The position numbers and the translations under genes are program-made. Under the pieces are notes generated by a model. That model was given only the letters and a program-made list of their open reading frames with translations. It had not been told where the DNA came from and did no database searches. A stretch of DNA of 64,000 nucleotides from Gemmatimonadales bacterium (GTDB taxonomy: Bacteria > Gemmatimonadota > Gemmatimonadetes > Gemmatimonadales > GWC2-71-9). The DNA lies in NCBI GenBank assembly GCA_050733075.1, contig JBOHSD010000014.1:13-64012 (forward strand). The letters are read 5' to 3'. This document shows positions 9,102 through 53,632 of the stretch, piece after piece. The number at the start of each line of letters is the position of its first letter. Positions within the stretch are counted from its first letter, which is position 1.

Positions 9102-11609
9102 TTAGCCTACCACCAGATTCAGCAACCGATTCGGCACATACACCACCTTCCGAACCTCCTTCCCCTCCGTAAACCTCCGCACCGCGGAATCCTTCAGAGC
9201 AGCGGCCACGACCGTTTCCTCGTCGGCTCCGCGGGGCACGGTGACCTTCGATCGGGTCTTCCCGTTGACCTGCACCGCTATTTCCACGGTCTCTTCTACC
9301 GTGAGCCGCTCGTCCCAGGTGGGCCATCGCGCGTTGAAGATCGAGGAGTCGTGGCCCAGGCGCTCCCAGTTCTCCTCCGCAAAGTGGGGCGCGAAGGGGG
9401 CCAGCATGACGATCAGGTCCTCCACAATCTCGCGGCTGGCCACGTTCTCGGCGCGGATGGTGTTGACGAACTCCATGAGGGCCGCGATCGAGGTGTTGTA
9501 GCGCAGCTCCTCGAGGCCTTCCGTCACCTTCTTCACGGTCTGGTGCCGCTTGATGTCGACGAGTCGGGAGTCAGGAGTCGGGAGTCGGGAACGTCCGCCG
9601 TTGTCGCTGGCGGCCGTCTCGGTGACCAGGTTCCAGACTTTGTCCAGGAAGCGACGCGGCCCGCTGATCCCCTCGTCCCTGAAGTCGCCGCCCTCCTGGA
9701 ACGGGCCCAGGAACATGAGATACATGCGGAACGTGTCCGCGCCCCAGCGCGCGATGTACTCGTCCGGAATCACCACGTTGCCCCGCGACTTGGACATCTT
9801 GGCCCCGTCCTTCACGATGAGGCCGTGGGCCCGGAATTTCCGGAACGGCTCGTCGAAGTGAAGGTGACCGAGGCCGTGGAGCACCATCGTGATGAATCGC
9901 GAGTACAGCAGGTGCAGCACGGCGTGCTCGTTGCCGCCGATGTAGGTGGTCACCGGCAGCCATTTCCGGGTGCGCGCCGGGTCGAACGGCCGGTCGTCGA
10001 AGTCGGTGCTGGGATACCGTAGGAAGTACCAGGACGAGTCGAGAAACGTGTCGCTCACGTCGGTCTCGCGCCGGCTGCGCCTGCCGCAGATGGGACACGG
10101 GGTGTAGTACCACTCCTCGTGCCGGGCCAGCGGCGACACGCCGGTGTCGTCGGGCTGGAAGTCGTCGATCAACGGGAGCAGGACCGGCAGGTCCTTCTCG
10201 GGCACCGGGACCGCGCCGTGCTCGTCGCAATAGATGATGGGGATGGCAGGCCCCCAGTAGCGCTGGCGGGAGATGCACCAGTCGTGCAGCCGGTAGTTGA
10301 CGATGGCCTTGCCGGCGCCACGCTCGGCGAGCCAGGTGGTGATGGCGCGCTTGGCCTCGGGGACGGTGAGGCCGTCGAACTGGCCGGAGTTGACCAGGAC
10401 GCCGTTCTCGATGTCGACGTATGCCTCGGTAAGCGGAGTTTCGGCCCCTTCGCTGCGCTCAGGGTGACATACGACGCGGACGATCGGCAGGCCGAACTGC
10501 CGGGCGAATTCGAAGTCGCGCTCGTCGTGCCCCGGCACCGCCATGATGGAACCAGTGCCGTACTCCATCAGCACGTAATCCGCGATCCAGACCGGGATCG
10601 GCTTGCCAGTGGCCGGATTAATGGCGTACCCACCAGTGAACACGCCAGTCTTCTCGCGTTCACCGACTTTGCGGGAAACCAGGTCCTTCGCGGCAACGGA
10701 GCGACGGTAGGCATCTACCTCGGCCTTGCGGTCGGGAGTGGTGAAGGCGTCCACCAGCGGGTGCTCGGGAGCGAGCACCATGAACGTCGCCCCGAAAATG
10801 GTATCCGGGCGAGTCGTGAATACCCTGATCTCTTCCACCCTTCCCGTCTTTCCCGCCCTTCCCGCCTTTCCCGCAAACACGATCTCGGCGCCCTCGGAGC
10901 GACCCAGCCAATTCCGCTGGGCCAGCGTGGTGCTCTCGGACCAGTCCATCTTGGTCTTGTCGTCGAGGTCGGCCAGCAGCCGGTCGGCGTAGTCCGTGAT
11001 CCGGAAGAACCACTGCTCCAGCGTCCTCTGCTCCACCACCGAGCCGCAGCGCTCGCACCGCCCATCGATGACCTGCTCGTTGGCCAGCACCGTCTGATCC
11101 TTGGGGCACCAGTTGACCGCGGCCGCCTTCCGGTATGCCTTCCCTGCCTTCAGGAGTTGCAGAAAGAGCCACTGGGTCCACTTGTAGTACGCCGGATCGG
11201 TGGTGGAGAGCTCATGGCGCCAGTCGAACATGCCGCCGATACTTCGGAGCTGACGCCGGAAGTTGACGATATTGCGCGGGATCAACTCGGCCGGGTTGAC
11301 GCCGAGCTTGATTGCGTAGTTCTCGCTGTGAATGCCGAACGCATCGAAGCCGATCGGCTCGAACACGTCGTAGCCTTGAAGACGCTTGAAGCGACCGTAG
11401 ACGTCGCTGCCGGTGAAGGCGAACATGTTCCCCACGTGCAGCCCTTCGGCCGACGGGTAGGGGAACATCATCAGGTTGTAAAAGGGCCGTGCGGCCCGGT
11501 CGAGATCGGGCTCGTTGGTATGCCGCTCCGCCCAGCGCGACTGCCACTTGGCTTCGACCAGATCAGGACGGTAGGGCAGCACGTCGGTTGGTGTGGGATT
11601 CTGCTTCAC
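9102..11609 (-). CDS. leuS: Leucyl-tRNA synthetase
   Basis: FPYPSAEGLHVGN (HIGH region), VFTTRPDT, and KMSKSRGNV (KMSKS). Likely start is the GTG at 11609, just before YRPDLVEAKWQ. The ORF is open up to 11774. Confidence 0.95.
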   Translation of the reverse strand: MKQNPTPTDVLPYRPDLVEAKWQSRWAERHTNEPDLDRAARPFYNLMMFPYPSAEGLHVGNMFAFTGSDVYGRFKRLQGYDVFEPIGFDAFGIHSENYAIKLGVNPAELIPRNIVNFRRQLRSIGGMFDWRHELSTTDPAYYKWTQWLFLQLLKAGKAYRKAAAVNWCPKDQTVLANEQVIDGRCERCGSVVEQRTLEQWFFRITDYADRLLADLDDKTKMDWSESTTLAQRNWLGRSEGAEIVFAGKAGRAGKTGRVEEIRVFTTRPDTIFGATFMVLAPEHPLVDAFTTPDRKAEVDAYRRSVAAKDLVSRKVGEREKTGVFTGGYAINPATGKPIPVWIADYVLMEYGTGSIMAVPGHDERDFEFARQFGLPIVRVVCHPERSEGAETPLTEAYVDIENGVLVNSGQFDGLTVPEAKRAITTWLAERGAGKAIVNYRLHDWCISRQRYWGPAIPIIYCDEHGAVPVPEKDLPVLLPLIDDFQPDDTGVSPLARHEEWYYTPCPICGRRSRRETDVSDTFLDSSWYFLRYPSTDFDDRPFDPARTRKWLPVTTYIGGNEHAVLHLLYSRFITMVLHGLGHLHFDEPFRKFRAHGLIVKDGAKMSKSRGNVVIPDEYIARWGADTFRMYLMFLGPFQEGGDFRDEGISGPRRFLDKVWNLVTETAASDNGGRSRLPTPDSRLVDIKRHQTVKKVTEGLEELRYNTSIAALMEFVNTIRAENVASREIVEDLIVMLAPFAPHFAEENWERLGHDSSIFNARWPTWDERLTVEETVEIAVQVNGKTRSKVTVPRGADEETVVAAALKDSAVRRFTEGKEVRKVVYVPNRLLNLVVG
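9561..9590. repeat. GAGTCGG-family heptamer array inside leuS
   Basis: GAGTCGG GAGTCAG GAGTCGG GAGTCGG GA on the plus strand. On the coding strand it reads in frame as [10 protein letters not shown]. Confidence 0.85.
10445..10468. repeat. Half copy of the GTCACCCTGAG REP-like element inside leuS
   Basis: The coding strand reads GTCACCCTGAGCGCAGCGAAGGGG, translated CHPERSEG. It sits in a length-variable LeuS segment after HDERDFEFARQFGLPIV. Confidence 0.6.
10839..10874. repeat. Four tandem 9-nt repeats inside leuS
   Basis: CCTTCCCGT CTTTCCCGC CCTTCCCGC CTTTCCCGC encodes AGKAGRAGKTGR just before the conserved VFTTRPDT. Confidence 0.8.
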
Positions 11610-11811
11610 TCGCGTCTCGGTGCTCTTCCAGCGCTGGTTGGTCCCGCCCCCGGCCAGGCGCGGTTCCTCGAAGTGGGCGGCCTCGTAGAGAAGCCGTAAA
11701 TCTATTGCCGCTGCGGTGTTAGTGGTACCGGACCGGACCGGTTGACCCGCCGGTCCAACGGCCCGACCGTCCACCCGTCAGCGGGCCCCCCTCTTGCAAG
11801 GCTACGGCTCC

Positions 11812-13101
11812 ATGGCCGCAGCCCGCAATCAGTTCATCTTCCGCCTTCACCTGATCGGCTTCCTCTCCGCGGCTGTGCTGGCCACCGCGGCTGCGGGTAT
11901 CCTCGTCCTGGTCTGTCCGCCCCCGGCACAACCCACGATCCTGGGCGACCCGGTGGTGTGGGGTACCGCACTCATTCTGGCCCTCGGAGTGGCCATGGCA
12001 CAGCTGCTGGTCCGGCTGCTGCTGCAACGGGTACTGAAGCCGACCGGCAAGGCCGCGGCGGTGGCGTTGAGGGTTGCCGGGGGCGACCTCTCGATGCCCG
12101 ACTGGGCCGGCCGCAGCGGTCTGGACGGCCTCTCGACCTCCATAGTAGGAATGGTGACCCGGCTCCAGGAGCTGGTGGGCACCATCCGGCAACACTCACA
12201 CGACGCCGCCGCCATGGCTCAGGAGATCGCTGCCTCCACTCAGCAGATGACCGCATCGACCCAGGAGGTAGCGGGCACCACGGGCGATCTCACCGAGCGC
12301 GCCAACCAGCAAGCCACGGTGGTGCGGGCAGCGGCGGAAGATGCCGGCAAGATCCTGGAGATCGCCCAGGAGTTGGCCGCCGGCGCCACTCAAGCCGCCG
12401 AGCGGAATGCCGCTCTGGCCCGGCTGGCACGCTCTCATAGCGAGCGGCTGGACGAAAGCACCGCGGAGCTGGCGCGCCTGGCCGAGGAAATCGAGCGGGG
12501 CGCTGTTGAGGCAGAGGCGCTCGCCACCGCGTCGGGGCAGATCGAGAAGTTCATCACTCAGGCCAAGGCGATCGCCAAACAGACTCATATGCTCGCCCTG
12601 AATGCTTCGATCGAGGCCGCGCGGGCCGGAGAGGAAGGCCGCGGCTTCAGTGTCGTGGCCGAGGAGGTCCGCAAGCTGGCAAGCCAGGCGGCTCACGCGG
12701 CGACCTCGACCAGCGAAACAGTCCAGACCGTCGTGGCTCAGGTACAGACCGCGCGCGAGCGGCTGATCCGCCTGGGCCGGGGAGGAACGGCCGCTCGAGA
12801 GGCAGCTCACGCCGCGGCAGTCGGGCTGGTTAATGTCGCGGCCGATGCCGAGGCCAACGACGAGTGGACCCGGCGCATCTCGGAGTCAGCCAGCGAGGTA
12901 CGAGGGCTCATCGACGGCATTGCGGCACGGATGCGGGAAGTCTCCGCCGGAACCGAGGAGTACGCCGCCGCGGCCGAGGAGATCGCCGCGGCGGCAGAGG
13001 AGCTCAACGCCTCGACCGAGGAGATTTCGGCCTCCTCGAGCAACCTCGCCGGCGCCGCGGAGAAGCTGACCGGCGCCGTCGGCGGCTTCAAGCTCCAGTG
13101 A
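11812..13101 (+). CDS. Methyl-accepting chemotaxis protein (short, HAMP plus signalling domain)
   Basis: [36 protein letters not shown] is the MCP signalling hairpin. Two N-terminal TM segments. ATG at 11812, inside an ORF that opens with TTG at 11794. Confidence 0.85.
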
Positions 13102-31267: not shown

Positions 31268-31408
31268 GGGAGTCGGAAGTCTGGGGTGGAGAGTCGAGAG
31301 ACTACAGTCGAGAGTCGAAAGTCGAGAGTCGAAAGTCGAAGGTCTAAGATAATCTCGGGGGCCGGCCTGAGAGTCCGGTCGAGACTCCCGACTCCTGACT
31401 CCCGACTA
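31268..31408. repeat. Inverted heptamer-array element (GAGTCGG family) filling the serC-serA gap
   Basis: Left arm: 7-nt periodic GTCGA at 31307, 31314, 31321, 31328, 31335 (plus 31293). Right arm: GACTC at 31383, 31390, 31397 and GACTA at 31404. The serA TAG (31406-31408) is part of the last unit. Confidence 0.85.
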
Positions 31409-32653: not shown

Positions 32654-32768
32654 GGGAGAGTCGGGAGCTGGGAGCTGGATGTTGTAGGCCAGCAGACTTT
32701 CGACTGCGGACTCCTGACGAAGAGTCCTGACTTCCTACCCCCGACTCCCGACTCCCGACTCCCGACTA
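32654..32768. repeat. Inverted heptamer-array element (GAGTCGG family) filling the serA-DUF1015 gap
   Basis: Left arm GGGAGAGTCGGGAGCTGGGAGCTGG (32654-32678). Right arm GACTC at 32743, 32750, 32757 and GACTA at 32764. The TAG of the DUF1015 gene (32766-32768) is part of the last unit. Confidence 0.85.
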
Positions 32769-44207: not shown

Positions 44208-44223
44208 GCGGTCTCCGAAAAAC

Positions 44224-44371
44224 CGTGAACCGTGAACAGTAAACGGTGAACGGCAAGGGGTGAACCCGGCCACCCGTTCACCGTTTACCGTTCACCGTTT
44301 ACCGTTCACCGTTTACCGTTCACCGTTCACCGTTCACCGTTCACCGTTCACCGTTCACCGTTCACCGTTTA
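44224..44371. repeat. Inverted heptamer-array element (GTGAACG family) between pncB and pncA
   Basis: Right arm 44274-44371 is 14 uninterrupted units (10 CCGTTCA, 4 CCGTTTA). Left arm 44224-44253 is CGTGAAC CGTGAAC AGTAAAC GGTGAAC, plus GTGAACC at 44260-44266. Confidence 0.9.
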
Positions 44372-48363: not shown

Positions 48364-48398
48364 GCGGGGAAGCGGGGGAGCGGGGAAGCGGGGAAGCG
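48364..48398. repeat. Tandem octamer array (GCGGGGAA x4) starting 2 nt after the TAG stop
   Basis: GCGGGGAA GCGGGGGA GCGGGGAA GCGGGGAA GCG, between convergent genes. No inverted partner seen. Confidence 0.8.
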
Positions 48399-50188: not shown

Positions 50189-50237
50189 TCCTACCCCGTT
50201 GGAAAAGTCCCCGAACATACTCGGGAGAGTGGGAGGG

Positions 50238-50396
50238 GTGAAGGCCGTGAACGGTGAACGGTAAACGGTTAACGGGTACATGATTGCGGGAGAATGGTGA
50301 ACCGGCCCATCCCTTCCCCCCGTTCACCGTTCACCGTTCACCGTTCACCGTTTACCGTTCACCGTTCACCGTTTACCGTTCACCGTTCACCGTTCA
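50238..50396. repeat. Inverted heptamer-array element (GTGAACG family) in the divergent SDH/TetR intergenic region
   Basis: Left arm: GTGAACG GTGAACG GTAAACG GTTAACG (50247-50274), plus GTGAAGG at 50238 and GGTGAACC at 50297. Right arm 50320-50396 is 11 uninterrupted units (9 CCGTTCA, 2 CCGTTTA). Confidence 0.9.
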
Positions 50397-50432
50397 CGCC
50401 CTTCATCTCTCACCTCTTACATTCATCATCAC

Positions 50433-51035
50433 ATGTCGCCCCCTGGCCCTTCCAATCCCCGCCGCAACGGCACCGCCACCCGCCAGCGGCTCCTGCGCGC
50501 GGCGGCGGAGCTCTACACCACCGTGGGTTACCGGGCGACCACTACCCCGGAGCTCGCCGCCCGCGCCGGAGTGGCGGAGGGGACGATATACCGGCACTTC
50601 AAGGGCAAGGAGAGCCTGCTGAACGAGGTCTACCGCGATGCGCAGCAGCGGGGGGCGGAGCTGGTCCGCGAGGTGGACACCTACAAGGCGCTACCACCGC
50701 GTGAGCGATTGCTCGGCGTTGCCAGGCGCCTCGTGGACGAGGCGAAGACCGACCCCGCGAGGATGCGGATGCTGCTGCAGAGCCGGGAGGAGCGTCTTCT
50801 GGACGAGCAGAGCCGGGAAGCAGGACGCGAATTTCAGGAGGCGCTACAGCAGATCGTTGCCGGCGGCAAGGCGGACGGGAAAGTGCGTTCCGGCCCGGCC
50901 GACCTCTGGGCCTCGATCTGGCTGGCGCTGGTAGGGTTTGCGGCAGAGCGGGTGAGCGCAGGTGAGTGGACCCCGGAGCATCCGCAGGTGGCGCTGACGC
51001 TGGAGGCGGCCTGGGATGCGATCTCGGCGAGATGA
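50433..51035 (+). CDS. TetR-family transcriptional regulator
   Basis: RQRLLRAAAELYTTVGYRATTTPELAARAGVAEGTIYRHFKGKESLL. Confidence 0.9.
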   Translation: MSPPGPSNPRRNGTATRQRLLRAAAELYTTVGYRATTTPELAARAGVAEGTIYRHFKGKESLLNEVYRDAQQRGAELVREVDTYKALPPRERLLGVARRLVDEAKTDPARMRMLLQSREERLLDEQSREAGREFQEALQQIVAGGKADGKVRSGPADLWASIWLALVGFAAERVSAGEWTPEHPQVALTLEAAWDAISAR

Positions 51036-51051
51036 GGAGTTTTTCTCCCGC

Positions 51052-51810
51052 TCACCGCTCCCGTCTCCCCTCAAAAAACGTCAGCTGCCTCGGCCGGGCC
51101 GGCAGATTCGACCACGCGGGCCGGCGGGGACGCCCTGGGCCCAGGGGCCGGACCTCGAGCCTATCGTTCACGAAGTATCCCACCGAATCACTCCCCCAGC
51201 GCACCGGGTCACGCGCGCCGCGGGCGAGGAGACCGGGCGCTCCGGTATCCGCCACCACGCACAGGTCGCCACCCGTCTCACACGGCACCGCCCGGGCGAA
51301 CACCGGGTCGCCCAGCAGCACCGCCAGGCTCGACTCCGCGCGCGCGCGTTCGCCGGCCGGCACCGCCCGGGCATCCCGGGCCGCGGGCGGCGAGCCGACC
51401 CGATAAAGGCCGTTAGCCGTCGAGACGATCACCGATTGTCCACCCCGCTCCCAGCCGACTCGCAGGGGCTGTCCAGCGCCCCTGGGCAGCCGGAGCTCGC
51501 GTTCCCCACCGCTCAGCAGGCTCATGACCCAGACGGTGGCAGGGGTAGAGTCGTTGACCGATGCACTGCGGAAGAACGCCAACCTGGCGCCGTCGGGCGA
51601 GAGGGCCGGCCTCAGCTCGGCGATGTTGCTGAAGGTGACCCGGACCGGGGAGCCCCCCTGGGGACGCGCAGCATAGAGATCACCATTGAGACCGCCACCA
51701 ACGAAGACGGCATATGGGTCTCGCCCGACCTCCATCTGGCCGCGGAGCGGAGGGAGCGTGGGATCGCAGGCGGTCAGAAGTAAGAGGTGAGAAGTGAGAA
51801 GGGTTGTCAC
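51052..51810 (-). CDS. TolB-like beta-propeller (PD40 repeat) protein, possibly a lipoprotein
   Basis: LRPALSPDGARLAFF is a PD40 motif. Putative GTG start at 51810 gives VTTLLTSHLLLLTAC, a lipobox-like signal encoded by the heptamer array. Alternative ATG at 51735 has no signal. Confidence 0.55.
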   Translation of the reverse strand: MTTLLTSHLLLLTACDPTLPPLRGQMEVGRDPYAVFVGGGLNGDLYAARPQGGSPVRVTFSNIAELRPALSPDGARLAFFRSASVNDSTPATVWVMSLLSGGERELRLPRGAGQPLRVGWERGGQSVIVSTANGLYRVGSPPAARDARAVPAGERARAESSLAVLLGDPVFARAVPCETGGDLCVVADTGAPGLLARGARDPVRWGSDSVGYFVNDRLEVRPLGPGRPRRPAWSNLPARPRQLTFFEGRRER

Positions 51811-51933
51811 CCTGAGGGCGCGGCCGCGCCCGAGGGGCCGGAGCTTGAATTGTGCTTCGGCCCCCTCGCCTGCGCTGCGCTTCGGCTCAGGGTGACACCG
51901 CATTCCCCTCACTTCTTACTTCTCACCTCTCAC
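51773..51933. repeat. Composite element: GTGAGAA-family heptamer arms flanking a GTCACCCTGAG...CTCAGGGTGAC REP-like palindrome
   Basis: Left arm GTCAGAA GTAAGAG GTGAGAA GTGAGAA (51773-51800). Palindrome arms at 51806-51816 and 51886-51896 enclose the internal palindrome GGCGCGGCCGCGCC and the hairpin CGAGGGGCCG/CGGCCCCCTCG. Right arm CCCTCAC TTCTTAC TTCTCAC CTCTCAC (51906-51933). Confidence 0.85.
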
Positions 51934-53511
51934 TGTGCTTTTGAGCAGCCACCAGCCGTGGGGATCGACCTGGATGCTGGCGGGCTTCCGCCTGATTCCC
52001 TCGAGCACCTTGCGGGTCTTCCTTCCCTCGATCGCCACCCGCACCGGTTTTCCATCAACCAGTAGCTCGAGAGCCGGGATTCGATAGGCGCCCCACTCCG
52101 GCTTTTGGATCTGCTCGATCTCGAGCGTCAGCTTCCCTCCCTGGTGACGCCAGTGGATCTCCAGCACCGGATAGCCCGGCTGAGTCAGCGCCTGCCGGAA
52201 GTACCACTCGAGATCCTGCCCCGCGGTCTGGGACATTACCCGGGCGAAATCGCCGGAGAGCGCGGTACTGTCCTTATAGGCCGAGTAGTAGCGCCGCAGC
52301 CCGCCGAAGAAGGTGGAGTCTCCCAGGATACCACGGAGCTGATGCAGTACCCACGCACCTTTCTCGTAGCTGTTGCTGTTGAGCAGCCCGAGCAGATCGG
52401 ACGTCGCAGTATCTACCACCGGCCGCTCGCTGGCGGGGGAGTCGAGAATCTCGGCTGCCGCTCCCGCCATTCTGGAGCGGAAGGCGCTGTCGCCCTCGGC
52501 GTGAGCGGTCCAGAGGGCGGAGAGATAGGTGGCGAACCCTTCCGACAGCCAGAGATGCGGCCAGTCCAACGGGGTGACCGAGTTGCCGAACCACTGATGC
52601 CCGGTCTCGTGGGCTACCAGCGCCTCGTTCAGCTTCTTGCTCCGGTAGAGCTTCTCGTCGTAAAAGATCGCAGTGGCGTTCTCCATGCCGCCGAACCTGG
52701 TGCTCGACTCGACGTGGGCCAGGCTGGGATAGGGAAATGGAGCGATCAGCCGGCTGAAGTACTCCAGCATCTCGCCGGCCCGCCGGAAGGCCCTGGTAAC
52801 AGCGTAGGCCGAGTCGAGGGGGTAGGTCCAGACGGTGAGCGGCACGCACTTGATCGCGCAGGCAGCGTCCGGCAGAGCGGTACGGGCGAACTTGCCGACG
52901 CCCGCCACCATGGTGTATACCGGCACCGGAGTGTCCAGGCGGTAGTGCCACATCGCGCTGCCGTAGGGCAGCGTGTCGATTTTCTCCAGCACGCCGTTAG
53001 CGATCACCTGGTGCTCGATAGGCACCTCGACGTGAAATGCGACAGTCGCCTTGTCGCTGGGGTGATCGCGGGAAGGGAGCCAGAGGTGAGCCCGGTTGGG
53101 CCAGTTGTCGGCGAACAGGGTGCGCTGGCCGTATTGGTTGTTGCGAATGATCAGCCCATCGCGGGTGAAGCCGCGGTAGCGCACCCGGGTGCTGATCGAA
53201 TCGCCCGGCTGCTTTTGATGCGGGATAGCAATGTAGTCCTCCGACCGGCCATACATGGTGCGGGAGAGCCGGGTGTTGGGTTTACCGTCCACCAGAACCC
53301 GGATCACCCGCATGGCGGAGTCGAGCTGCATCGTCACCGGCTCGGCGGAGCGGAGCCGCCATGTGGTCTGCACTTCGCCTAGGACGTGGGTGCCGGTGTC
53401 GCTGGGCACGAGGGTGATGTCGTAGTGCAGCGCGTCATGCACCGCGCCGACCGAGTCGGCCCAGGCGGCGAGGGGAGACTGGGATTGCAACAGGAGAATC
53501 AGGGGGAGCAT
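51916..53511 (-). CDS. M1-family zinc aminopeptidase (aminopeptidase N-like)
   Basis: GGMENAT, HETGHQWFGNSV (HExxH), and WLSEGFATY. The last codons (VRGEK) and the TAA stop lie inside the heptamer array. Confidence 0.9.
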   Translation of the reverse strand: MLPLILLLQSQSPLAAWADSVGAVHDALHYDITLVPSDTGTHVLGEVQTTWRLRSAEPVTMQLDSAMRVIRVLVDGKPNTRLSRTMYGRSEDYIAIPHQKQPGDSISTRVRYRGFTRDGLIIRNNQYGQRTLFADNWPNRAHLWLPSRDHPSDKATVAFHVEVPIEHQVIANGVLEKIDTLPYGSAMWHYRLDTPVPVYTMVAGVGKFARTALPDAACAIKCVPLTVWTYPLDSAYAVTRAFRRAGEMLEYFSRLIAPFPYPSLAHVESSTRFGGMENATAIFYDEKLYRSKKLNEALVAHETGHQWFGNSVTPLDWPHLWLSEGFATYLSALWTAHAEGDSAFRSRMAGAAAEILDSPASERPVVDTATSDLLGLLNSNSYEKGAWVLHQLRGILGDSTFFGGLRRYYSAYKDSTALSGDFARVMSQTAGQDLEWYFRQALTQPGYPVLEIHWRHQGGKLTLEIEQIQKPEWGAYRIPALELLVDGKPVRVAIEGRKTRKVLEGIRRKPASIQVDPHGWWLLKSTVRGEK

Positions 53512-53519
53512 AGCAAAGC

Positions 53520-53632
53520 GTAAACGGTAAACGGTGAACGGTGAACGGTGAATGGAAGGCTGCTGTACCCCGGCACGTGAACGGGAGGTGAGCGGCCCGT
53601 TTACCGTTTACCATTCACCGTTCACGGTTTCA
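53520..53632. repeat. Inverted heptamer-array element (GTGAACG family) between the dienelactone hydrolase and M1 peptidase genes
   Basis: Left arm: GTAAACG x2, GTGAACG x2, GTGAATG (53520-53554), plus an extra GTGAACG at 53577. Right arm: CCGTTTA x2, CCATTCA, CCGTTCA, CGGTTTCA (53597-53632). The upstream TGA at 53630-53632 abuts the array. Confidence 0.9.

Follow-up and report, generated by a model that had tools for sequence, protein, structure and literature searches.

Inverted heptamer arrays around a palindromic element at a Gemmatimonadales gene junction encode the end of a peptidase and a predicted lipoprotein signal-peptide core

In cyanobacteria, heptanucleotide arrays of the short tandemly repeated repetitive (STRR) type, the subject of work by Mazel et al. 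in 1990 and Elhai et al. in 2008, reportedly carry very small mobile elements embedded within them. Here, we describe a comparable arrangement in a 64,000-nt stretch of Gemmatimonadales DNA (GenBank assembly GCA_050733075.1, contig JBOHSD010000014.1, positions 13 to 64,012; hereafter called the window), where two complementary arrays of GTGAGAA-type heptamers flank a 91-nt palindrome at the junction between the genes for an M1 family metallopeptidase and a TolB/Tricorn_N-like beta-propeller protein. Our comparison identified the window with contig CDHZYM010000036.1 of the Gemmatimonadales MAG (metagenome-assembled genome) GCA_975305025.1. As in the STRR arrays, tandem heptamers are dispersed in intergenic DNA and small, apparently mobile elements are nested in them. 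The host differs, however, as do the units (GTGAGAA, GTGAGCG, GTGAACG, and GTCGAGA), and the system is an analogue of the STRR family rather than a member.

Compensatory changes preserve the hairpin in repetitive extragenic palindromic (REP) sequences, bacterial interspersed mosaic elements (BIMEs), and REPINs of Enterobacteria and Pseudomonas (PMC3116915). Our locus resembles these families in that short, dispersed palindromic repeats able to form hairpins in single-stranded DNA or mRNA lie between operon genes, with new copies in or beside old ones. It differs in that the outer hairpin is made of tandem heptamers of variable number and interchangeable type, not of a fixed palindrome of 20 to 40 nt, and in that it overlaps coding sequence at both ends. 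The pneumococcal BOX, RUP, and SPRITE elements are transposable elements of the miniature inverted-repeat type (MITEs) that insert into one another (PMC10969869). The inner 91-nt element shares with MITEs its perfect terminal inverted repeats, typical size, stable fold, variable presence, and insertion inside another repeat, but no target-site duplication is evident, and its family is defined mainly by the GTCACCCTGAG terminus, the interiors being very diverse. Rickettsia palindromic elements (RPEs) occur in frame inside protein-coding genes and are translated in the product (PMC10969869). Similarly, the frame through our palindrome is open at five junctions, and half of the element stands in frame in a leucyl-tRNA synthetase (LeuRS) gene. 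RPEs, in contrast, measure approximately 150 bp, belong to another lineage, and lie inside mature enzymes, whereas the element here would fall in the dispensable n-region of a signal peptide.

Repeats in signal-peptide coding regions are well known from the opa genes of Neisseria, where a long, perfect array of CTCTT pentamers drives phase variation. The likeness to opa lies in a repeat unit whose length is not divisible by three, that can be read through in every frame, and that specifies hydrophobic residues; at our junction, however, there are few units, these have diverged and make up one hairpin arm, and frames are conserved. In translational coupling, stop and start codons overlap (GTGA or ATGA), or an mRNA structure is melted by the upstream ribosome. 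Our junction likewise has a candidate start that overlaps the upstream stop or follows it by 3 nt and is buried in a stem that a terminating ribosome would open, but the hairpin is built of repeats, has a stability of 60 to 130 kcal/mol, and would itself be translated in the reading that we favor. We know of no report of obligatory inverted pairing of heptamer arrays with a fixed purine-first polarity, or of repeat arms that encode a stop codon and a signal peptide. The combination of fixed-polarity inverted heptamers, arms in two genes, and concerted switching of unit type occurs in none of the systems compared here. A full-text search of the literature returned nothing on Gemmatimonadetes heptamer repeats, the doubled heptamers, or the palindrome termini, and the whole window gave no Rfam match at gathering thresholds. 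A permissive Rfam search of positions 51600 to 52100 returned only long-hairpin miRNA models at 37 bits, against thresholds of 137 to 168, and these hits are spurious.

Direct reading of positions 51500 to 52200 bore out the architecture given in the original prediction, namely four GTGAGAA-type units and four complementary units around a 91-nt palindrome with internal hairpins. Both genes are on the minus strand, and we therefore name the arms in gene sense. The 5′ arm (51906 to 51933; called the right arm in the original prediction) reads GTGAGAG GTGAGAA GTAAGAA GTGAGGG on the minus strand, or CCCTCAC TTCTTAC TTCTCAC CTCTCAC on the plus strand. The 3′ arm (51773 to 51800; previously the left arm) reads (CCC)TTCTCAC TTCTCAC CTCTTAC TTCTGAC on the minus strand and GTCAGAA GTAAGAG GTGAGAA GTGAGAA on the plus strand. 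In a repeat search, the optimal pairing of the arms (51779 to 51801 with 51912 to 51934) spanned 23 nt at 91% complementarity across a gap of 110 nt. Between the arms sits the MITE/REPIN-like palindrome (51806 to 51896, without a strand of its own), the ends of which, TGTCACCCTGAG and CTCAGGGTGACA, form a 12-nt inverted repeat with 100% complementarity (51805 to 51816 and 51886 to 51897). Its interior contains the hairpin GGGCGCGGCCGCGCCC at 51817 to 51832 and a second stem-loop at 51831 to 51868. Folding of the 176-nt region gave -98.4 kcal/mol (z = -7.2) for the gene-sense strand and -105.1 kcal/mol (z = -8.2) for the plus strand, and in neither case was any of 200 shuffled sequences as stable.

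Both repeat classes are enriched in the window. The motif GTCACCCTGAG, with at most one mismatch, occurs 5 times against 1.5 expected, a count reached by none of 100 shuffles, and the doubled heptamer, with at most three mismatches, occurs 9 times against 3.5 expected, with 6 of the 9 within these two arms. The composite is not an assembly artifact: the independent Logan assembly SRR27067773 is identical across 3036 nt including the whole composite, although it possibly derives from the same reads, and the same architecture is present in dozens of other metagenome-assembled genomes (MAGs), long-contig assemblies among them.

The 5′ arm encodes the end of the peptidase. The open reading frame (ORF) of this 531-residue protein (51916 to 53511, minus strand; Pfam Peptidase_M1, E = 5e-34) ends in ...STVRGEK, and the VRGEK codons together with the TAA stop (51916 to 51918, within the GTAAGAA unit) belong to the arm, as had been proposed. 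Database searches retrieved approximately 120 orthologues of each of the two proteins at 60 to 80% identity, and all of the named ones are from Gemmatimonadales. Beyond the conserved DPNGWWLLK motif, the peptidase orthologues end in TVRGEK*, TVRSEK*, SVSGER*, SVNGER*, SVNGKQ*, and the like, which is what GTGAGAG/GTGAGAA, GTGAGCG, or GTGAACG arrays encode in frame before they reach the stop that they themselves contain. Aligned orthologous C-termini are thus repeat-coded and vary with the heptamer present. The peptidase's own signal peptide, MLPLILLLQSQSPLAAWA, is of the ordinary type and is conserved as MLPLLLLLQSQSPLAA(W/R)AD; it is not heptamer-coded, despite a heptamer hairpin just upstream of the gene. 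We therefore rejected heptamer-coded signal peptides as a general trait and regard the coding use of the arms as specific to this junction.

At the other end of the composite, the 3′ arm is predicted to supply a signal-peptide core to the TolB/Tricorn_N-like beta-propeller protein, the frame of which is open on the minus strand from 51912 to 51052. Across the arm, this frame reads LLTSHLLLLTAC, and the arm codes LLTSHLLLLT immediately ahead of a lipobox, L-T-A-C (51766 to 51777), whose cysteine codon occupies 51768 to 51766 and from which the mature part would begin. In the orthologues, a conserved cysteine is followed by CDPTLPPLRGQMEIGRDPYAVFVGG or DPTLPPLRGQMEIGRDPYAVFVGG. This cysteine is nearly invariant (C46), and it and the residues that follow it are at least 90% conserved among proteins of 60 to 70% overall identity. 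The lipobox takes forms such as LTAC, LTSC, LVAC, and VSSC, and the hydrophobic stretch before the cysteine is heptamer-coded, reading LLTSHLLLLT, LFTVHRSLFTLF, or PLTLLLFPLTLL according to the heptamer type of the species. In loci of the GTGAGCG type, canonical units are scarcer in the 3′ arm than in the 5′ arm, and the former reads PLTLLLFPLTLL and not PLTAHRSPLTAH, which we interpret as remodeling at the protein level toward hydrophobicity. The TolB-like product is therefore a predicted lipoprotein with a heptamer-coded signal-peptide core.

These observations also bear on a proposal that we give practically no credence, namely that translation starts at ATG 51735, the protein has no signal peptide, and the whole composite is intergenic. 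The ATG is present, and some orthologues (e.g., P0040 and P0064) are called from it, yet CDPTLPPLRGQ, the 11 residues upstream of Met 51735 with the cysteine among them, is conserved at 90% or more, and the hydrophobic stretch never fails ahead of it. Given this conservation, translation must start upstream of ATG 51735. Neither this start nor a set of repeat-free peptidase C-termini, which together would have spoken against the view that repeat DNA serves as coding sequence at both ends, was borne out: both the C-termini of the peptidases and the N-termini of the TolB-like proteins are heptamer-coded across the orthologues.

The position of the start codon itself was less straightforward. Apart from ATG 51735, three in-frame candidates exist: the GTG of the last 5′-arm unit (51910 to 51912, minus strand), which lies 3 nt past the peptidase stop (offset +6) and shares its frame with the peptidase and the lipobox cysteine; the ATG used in the public annotation (51901 to 51903), three codons further on, with a 283-residue product; and the GTG in the terminal repeat of the palindrome (51808 to 51810), which is the start of the original prediction. 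Among loci with a hairpin, 27 of 31 have an in-frame arm GTG that is open to the cysteine and either overlaps the stop (GTGA, offset -1) or lies in the next unit (G-TAA-nnn-GTG, +6), and in L008, L010, L018, and L057 this codon is the sole canonical start (L numbers denote the loci compared, and WIN denotes the window's own junction).

We then compared the spacer between the peptidase stop and the cysteine codon, with the frame sorted by stop type, at 36 junctions. With a TAA stop, the spacer was a multiple of three in 17 of 22 junctions (binomial P = 3e-5; ten lengths, from 39 to 177 nt), and with a TGA stop it was 2 modulo 3 in 10 of 14 (P = 0.004; six lengths), although these P values overstate independence, as the loci share ancestry, a limit that counts against the arm start. 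The range of spacer lengths, in turn, argues for many separate events. Both preferred frames are those that place the stop-adjacent arm GTG in phase with the cysteine. A start near the 3′ arm would set no such constraint, and the spacer frame thus favors the arm GTG.

The frame through the palindrome was consistent with this. At all five junctions with the 92-nt form of the palindrome (WIN, L002, L010, L025, and L098), the frame is open from the arm GTG through the element, while most other frames are closed. The first half reads CHPEPKRSAGEG in WIN and VVTLSRSAAQ or VVTLRRSPST in L098 and L002, and after these differing halves all three rejoin ...GPLGR(G/I)RALR(V/M)T, a return to frame that indicates compensating indels. 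More distant, hairpin-free orthologues have a candidate GTG that overlaps the peptidase stop (GTGA; for example, GCG CAG TGA / GTG AGA GCC... in L058), with a further candidate 34 nt upstream. In L056, a one-unit hairpin retains the GTGA overlap and fits a minimal intermediate. The lack of promoter-like or terminator-like sites between the two genes and the in-frame presence of both repeat classes in the LeuRS gene of the window also speak for the arm start. Taken together, the comparison makes it most likely that the lipoprotein ORF starts at the arm GTG 51912 or at the in-frame ATG 51903. If the former is used, the signal peptide would span approximately 49 residues, (M)RGMRCHPEPKRSAGEGAEAQFKLRPLGRGRALRVTTLLTSHLLLLTA|C, and the palindrome, probably part of the ORF and not an intergenic spacer, would be translated as MRCHPEPKRSAGEGAEAQFKLRPLGRGRALRV.

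Several observations weigh against a start in the 5′ arm. GC content by codon position in the loops is 0.60/0.65/0.67, without coding-type periodicity, compared with 0.72/0.57/0.78 in the mature protein. In three or four hairpin loci (L007, L016, L052, and L060), the arm offers no GTG in frame and translation must begin closer to the 3′ arm, and many orthologues have an ATG just before that arm, giving “MT..LLTSH,” so the start site may differ between lineages. The signal peptide would also be long. We applied a PROSITE PS51257-type rule that consists of the lipobox pattern, a cysteine at residues 15 to 35, and a Lys or Arg in the first seven residues. The segment ...SHLLLLTAC fits the pattern {DERK}(6)-[LIVMFWSTAG](2)-[LIVMFYSTAGCQ]-[AGS]-C for all three candidate starts. 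From ATG 51903 and GTG 51912 a Lys or Arg is present, but the cysteine falls at residues 46 and 49, respectively, beyond the range of the rule, while from GTG 51810 the cysteine is at residue 15 and Lys or Arg is absent. None of the three starts in the window thus satisfies all parts, whereas a start that does is available in 18 of 38 orthologous loci. Gene calls put the N-terminus of TolB-like homologues anywhere between 0 and 70 residues upstream of the cysteine.

The same observations lend some weight to the start of the original prediction, GTG 51810, from which the product would begin MTTLLTSHLLLLTAC and the remainder of the 5′ arm and the palindrome would be untranslated spacer. This GTG is in frame and is followed by a matching lipobox, as had been stated, and the left arm does code for LLTSHLLLLTAC; moreover, the corresponding codon in L002 and L016 is ATG (CTCAGGATGAC), the annotated start of many orthologues is an “MT” immediately ahead of the 3′ arm, L007 must start past its palindrome, and the loops lack coding-type GC periodicity. 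Nevertheless, we consider this start rather doubtful, although the GTG may serve as an alternative or additional start. It leaves unexplained the stop-dependent frame between stop and cysteine across 16 spacer lengths, as well as the open frame through all five 92-nt palindromes despite their internal frame changes. In L010, which carries the same palindrome, the corresponding GTG is out of frame and there is no other canonical start. The resulting 14-residue signal peptide would have neither Lys nor Arg, and the GTG lies within the perfectly paired 12-bp stem of the palindrome. The lipobox and the coding role of the left arm thus stand, while the spacer frame moves the favored start to GTG 51912.

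The arrangement is shared by approximately 36 orthologous junctions between M1 peptidase and TolB/Tricorn_N-like lipoprotein genes, in all of which the 5′ arm carries the last codons and the stop of the peptidase and the 3′ arm codes the hydrophobic core before the lipobox cysteine. The hairpin was seen in the DNA of 26 of 26 syntenic loci. To follow the co-variation of the arms, we used matching of unit types in place of cross-locus duplex energies, which averaged -42.4 kcal/mol for own arms and -35.4 kcal/mol for foreign arms but gave poor ranks owing to shared unit types and crude arm windows. Unit types agreed between the two arms in 22 of the 27 loci that were typed (9 GTGAGAA, 7 GTGAGCG, and 6 GTGAACG), with a few mixed loci that look intermediate. 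On a rough protein tree, unit types are interspersed among close relatives, which means that the two arms have been replaced jointly on several occasions. A clade of hairpin-free orthologues is nested in a crude neighbor-joining tree, and the change may have been a gain or a loss. Concerted change, by template switching or gene conversion and possibly with selection, would keep the arms matched.

Based on these comparisons, we favor, with moderate confidence in the explanation as a whole, a nested repeat composite on a stop/start junction, in which the lipoprotein starts at the arm GTG, the arms and the palindrome are translated, and the hairpin enforces coupling. The 5′ arm supplies the final five codons of the peptidase with its TAA, and the 3′ arm supplies the hydrophobic core of the predicted lipoprotein signal peptide. 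With the start codon buried in the stem 3 nt past the stop, a ribosome finishing the peptidase would melt the stem, expose the GTG, and be handed over to the lipoprotein ORF, and the hairpin would thereby enforce translational coupling of the two genes. We infer this coupling function from the layout of the junction. The hairpin-free GTGA orthologues and L056 fit coupling because the candidate start overlaps the stop there, and a promoter/terminator scan found no promoter-like or terminator-like site between the two genes.

A stem of this kind could also act without any coupling. As a terminator, attenuator, or 3′-end stabilizer in the manner of REP/BIME elements, it would tune the ratio of peptidase to lipoprotein mRNA. 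REP elements near stop codons protect the upstream mRNA, and the present structure is a very stable stem-loop at the end of the upstream gene; the heptamer hairpins of the window in general begin at upstream stops. Termination fits less well, given that the 3′ arm is followed by CGCCTGCGATCCC with no U-tract after the stem and that the scan for terminators at the junction was negative. In addition, the 3′ arm must be translated for the signal peptide, and full termination at the hairpin would therefore silence a conserved gene. We judge this explanation unlikely.

A more serious contender, to which we assign a substantial chance though below even, is that the hairpin is functionless, selfish or mutational repeat DNA, expanded by slippage and with arms homogenized by template switching, whose coding overlaps are tolerated since the units happen to suit stops on one arm and hydrophobic peptides on the other. 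Turnover is rapid, with unit types switching among close relatives and loops and palindromes coming and going, and hairpin-free orthologues exist. Similar hairpins stand at numerous junctions unrelated to this one, some of them in promoter regions between divergent genes, and their arms can be very unequal (13.7 versus 4.4 units). The folds of the two strands are also nearly equal in stability, which fits this view: the gene-sense fold is more stable than the antisense fold in only 17 of 29 loci, a weak lean with G-U pairs at 129 versus 89. Further weighing against the coupling explanation, template-switch correction at the DNA level could produce the co-variation of the arms without any function. 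On the other hand, the purine-first polarity of 28 of 28 array pairs (see below), together with the retention of the paired hairpin in approximately 36 species-level genomes, suggests purifying constraint on orientation and pairing. The selfish-DNA view touches function only and can be held together with what the explanation that we favor says on structure and coding.

The presence of a repeat in signal-peptide coding sequence raises the question of phase variation, in which slippage of heptamers would toggle the lipoprotein as CTCTT slippage does in Neisseria opa. In favor of this, a unit of seven does not preserve frame, the repeat falls within signal-peptide coding sequence and is free of stops in every frame, and species differ in the number of units. 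The 3′ arm in the window, however, has only two identical adjacent units, the others having diverged, so that slippage is expected to be rare. Species also keep the same frames, frequent OFF states are not apparent, and the two available assemblies are identical at the junction. A switch of this type thus appears very improbable.

A bolder extension of coupling would make the composite part of an undescribed family of Gemmatimonadales “translation-proof” hairpins, closed by stops in all three frames on the incoming arm and open and hydrophobic in all three on the outgoing arm, that colonize stop/start junctions. At this junction, the entire hairpin, nested palindrome included, would be translated as a signal peptide, and the lipoprotein would be made only when translation of the peptidase terminates. 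The arms would then be constrained at once by two proteins and by the structure of one RNA, and would therefore co-evolve. We put this forward as a tentative proposal that is more apt to be wrong than right.

Complementary arms of one hairpin that lie in two genes and have repeatedly changed together offer a system in which selection for RNA or DNA structure may be separated from concerted mutation. The junction also suggests that stop codon, start codon, and signal peptide can all be drawn from simple repeats and a mobile palindrome, which would extend the RPE and opa precedents to a little-studied soil phylum. In practical terms, start calls near the arrays are inconsistent, so that in Gemmatimonadota MAGs neither the boundaries of genes nor their status as lipoproteins can be relied on there.

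To place the junction within its repeat class, we searched 485 kb of Gemmatimonadales DNA, comprising the window and 80 loci from GTDB species representatives. Tandem Repeats Finder detected 107 period-7 arrays, which formed 28 inverted pairs at six or more different genomic sites. In all 28 pairs, a purine-rich GT(G/A)Annn arm comes first and an nnnT(C/T)AC arm second, on either strand. This polarity is a strict and simple rule that lends itself to testing. The units fall into the types GTGAGAA/GTGAGAG, GTGAACG/GTGAACA, GTGAGCG, and a GTCGAGA/GTCGGGA group. An array of GTGAGAA contains TGA in all three frames, while the complementary (TTCTCAC)n is free of stops in every frame and reads as the cyclic peptide FSLLTSH. 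GTGAACG (complement RSPFTVH) and GTGAGCG (complement RSPLTAH) behave likewise; more generally, each of the three frames is closed by a stop in arrays of GTGAnnn or GTAAnnn, and the complementary arrays are open in all three and encode a 7-residue repeat rich in Leu, Phe, and Thr. With one arm closed and the other open in every frame, such a hairpin can therefore span a gene junction without destroying either gene.

The window itself contains approximately ten period-7 arrays, and inverted arrays stand at many of its gene junctions. By our pairing criteria, five inverted pairs are present: 31289-31339/31383-31407, 44221-44251/44274-44369, 50247-50275/50320-50397, 51776-51801/51908-51934, and 53523-53552/53597-53630. 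The array at 32725 to 32767 has only a weak partner at 32663 to 32678, outside these criteria. At tandem junctions, the upstream stop lies at or in the first unit (TA|GTCGGGA at 31406 and 32766; G-TAA-ACG at 44369) or, in the case of the TGA at 53630, just before the array. Arms can be very unequal, with 4.4 versus 13.7 units at 44221 to 44369 and 4.1 versus 11.1 at 50247 to 50397, and one heptamer array (23 to 51) is cut off by the start of the window.

The palindrome belongs to a separate, very large dispersed family. In the 485 kb, its termini had 37 full or half matches, and copies of the 92-nt subfamily also occur at unrelated sites (L015:700, L027:731, and L086). Across eight aligned subfamily copies, the terminal repeat is invariant and both inner hairpins are kept, so that two inner stem-loops are closed by the terminal-repeat stem. 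Covariation is almost absent, with a double change in 1 of 35 pairs, and we rejected the idea that the palindrome is an old structured RNA; the subfamily fits a recently dispersed mobile element. At the orthologous junction, the palindrome has the orientation of the window in L002 and L098 and the reverse orientation in L025 and L010; L007 carries another subfamily, L005, L006, L008, and L070 carry half copies, and L003, L004, L011, L012, L019, and others are short-looped and have none. The nesting of one repeat class in the loop of the other, as previously suggested, is thus upheld, and the comparison identifies the palindrome as a secondary addition to the hairpin loop.

It had further been asked whether such elements prefer heptamer loops, and the census speaks against dependence on them. 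The pattern GTCACCCTGAG-N60-85-CTCAGGGTGAC occurs in at least 120 metagenome stretches with very diverse interiors and contexts, and most copies among the matches listed lie elsewhere. Among these matches, heptamer arrays stand on both sides only at L098 (the orthologous junction), L101, L122, and L160, and on one side at L180 and L182; flanks were judged by reading, an automatic threshold having flagged none of 122. Judged from these contexts, nesting in heptamer loops has arisen at several independent loci, but the palindrome family does not depend on it. MITE traits comprise the perfect 12-nt terminal inverted repeats, the 91-nt length, dispersed copies, and filled, empty, and inverted states at one junction. 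No obvious target-site duplication was found in the flanks of approximately ten palindrome copies, although a T...A frequently stands beside the terminal repeat. The palindrome is not clearly a doublet of one REP unit, and copies also lie inside ORFs; the term REP-like thus denotes an unproven resemblance.

Additional occurrences of both repeat classes were noted. At L101:40-150, a locus other than the peptidase junction, a very long 5′ arm of approximately 14 mixed GTGAGCG, GTGAGAG, and GTAAGCG units is followed by another member of the palindrome family and then by a short 3′ arm, an independent case of nesting. At L118:475-620, L121:3710-3850, and L199:113-240, palindrome copies are followed by the terminal motif alone in tandem (...CTCAGGGTGAC every 18 to 20 nt), a pattern that points to partial insertion, many times over, or to slippage at the element's end. 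In the LeuRS gene of the window (9102 to 11777, minus strand), both classes occur in frame, notably at 10440 to 10468 and 9561 to 9590. A half copy of the palindrome, TTCGGCCCCTTCGCTGCGCTCAGGGTGAC, which matches the right half of the complete elements at L012 and L017, is read as CHPERSEGAE in a variable linker, and a (GAGTCGG)x4.3 array is translated in frame. Both align with variable segments of Thermus thermophilus LeuRS (1h3n).

Heptamer repeats also surround neighboring genes. In the orthologous loci L007, L009, L011, L019, L058, and L062, a full heptamer hairpin follows the stop of the TolB-like gene. In the window, this gene (end at 51052) converges on a TetR gene (end at 51035), and the 16-nt gap region contains a weak period-7 stretch at 51045 to 51069 (CTCCCG-like, with indels). 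Just upstream of the TetR start at 50433, a short TTCTCAC-type stretch (CATCTCTCACCTCTTACATTC, 50398 to 50425) directly follows a long CCGTTCA array, so that two heptamer types abut. On the other side, a saccharopine dehydrogenase-like gene is called in the public annotation from ATG 50281 with an array-coded N-terminus, MYPLTVYRSPFTAF (50219 to 50281, minus strand), a call that is probably overextended owing to the open frames of the CGTTCAC array. The window also contains tandem repeats of other periods at 48364 to 48398 (GCGGGGAA, 4.4 copies), 10838 to 10874 (an 18-mer, 2.1 copies), and 12944 to 13024 (a 21-mer, 3.9 copies). Finally, an M1 aminopeptidase with a signal peptide is conserved beside the Tricorn_N-like beta-propeller lipoprotein (51052 to 53511), an arrangement that recalls the tricorn protease and its M1-family interacting factors, and the two products may work together in the periplasm.

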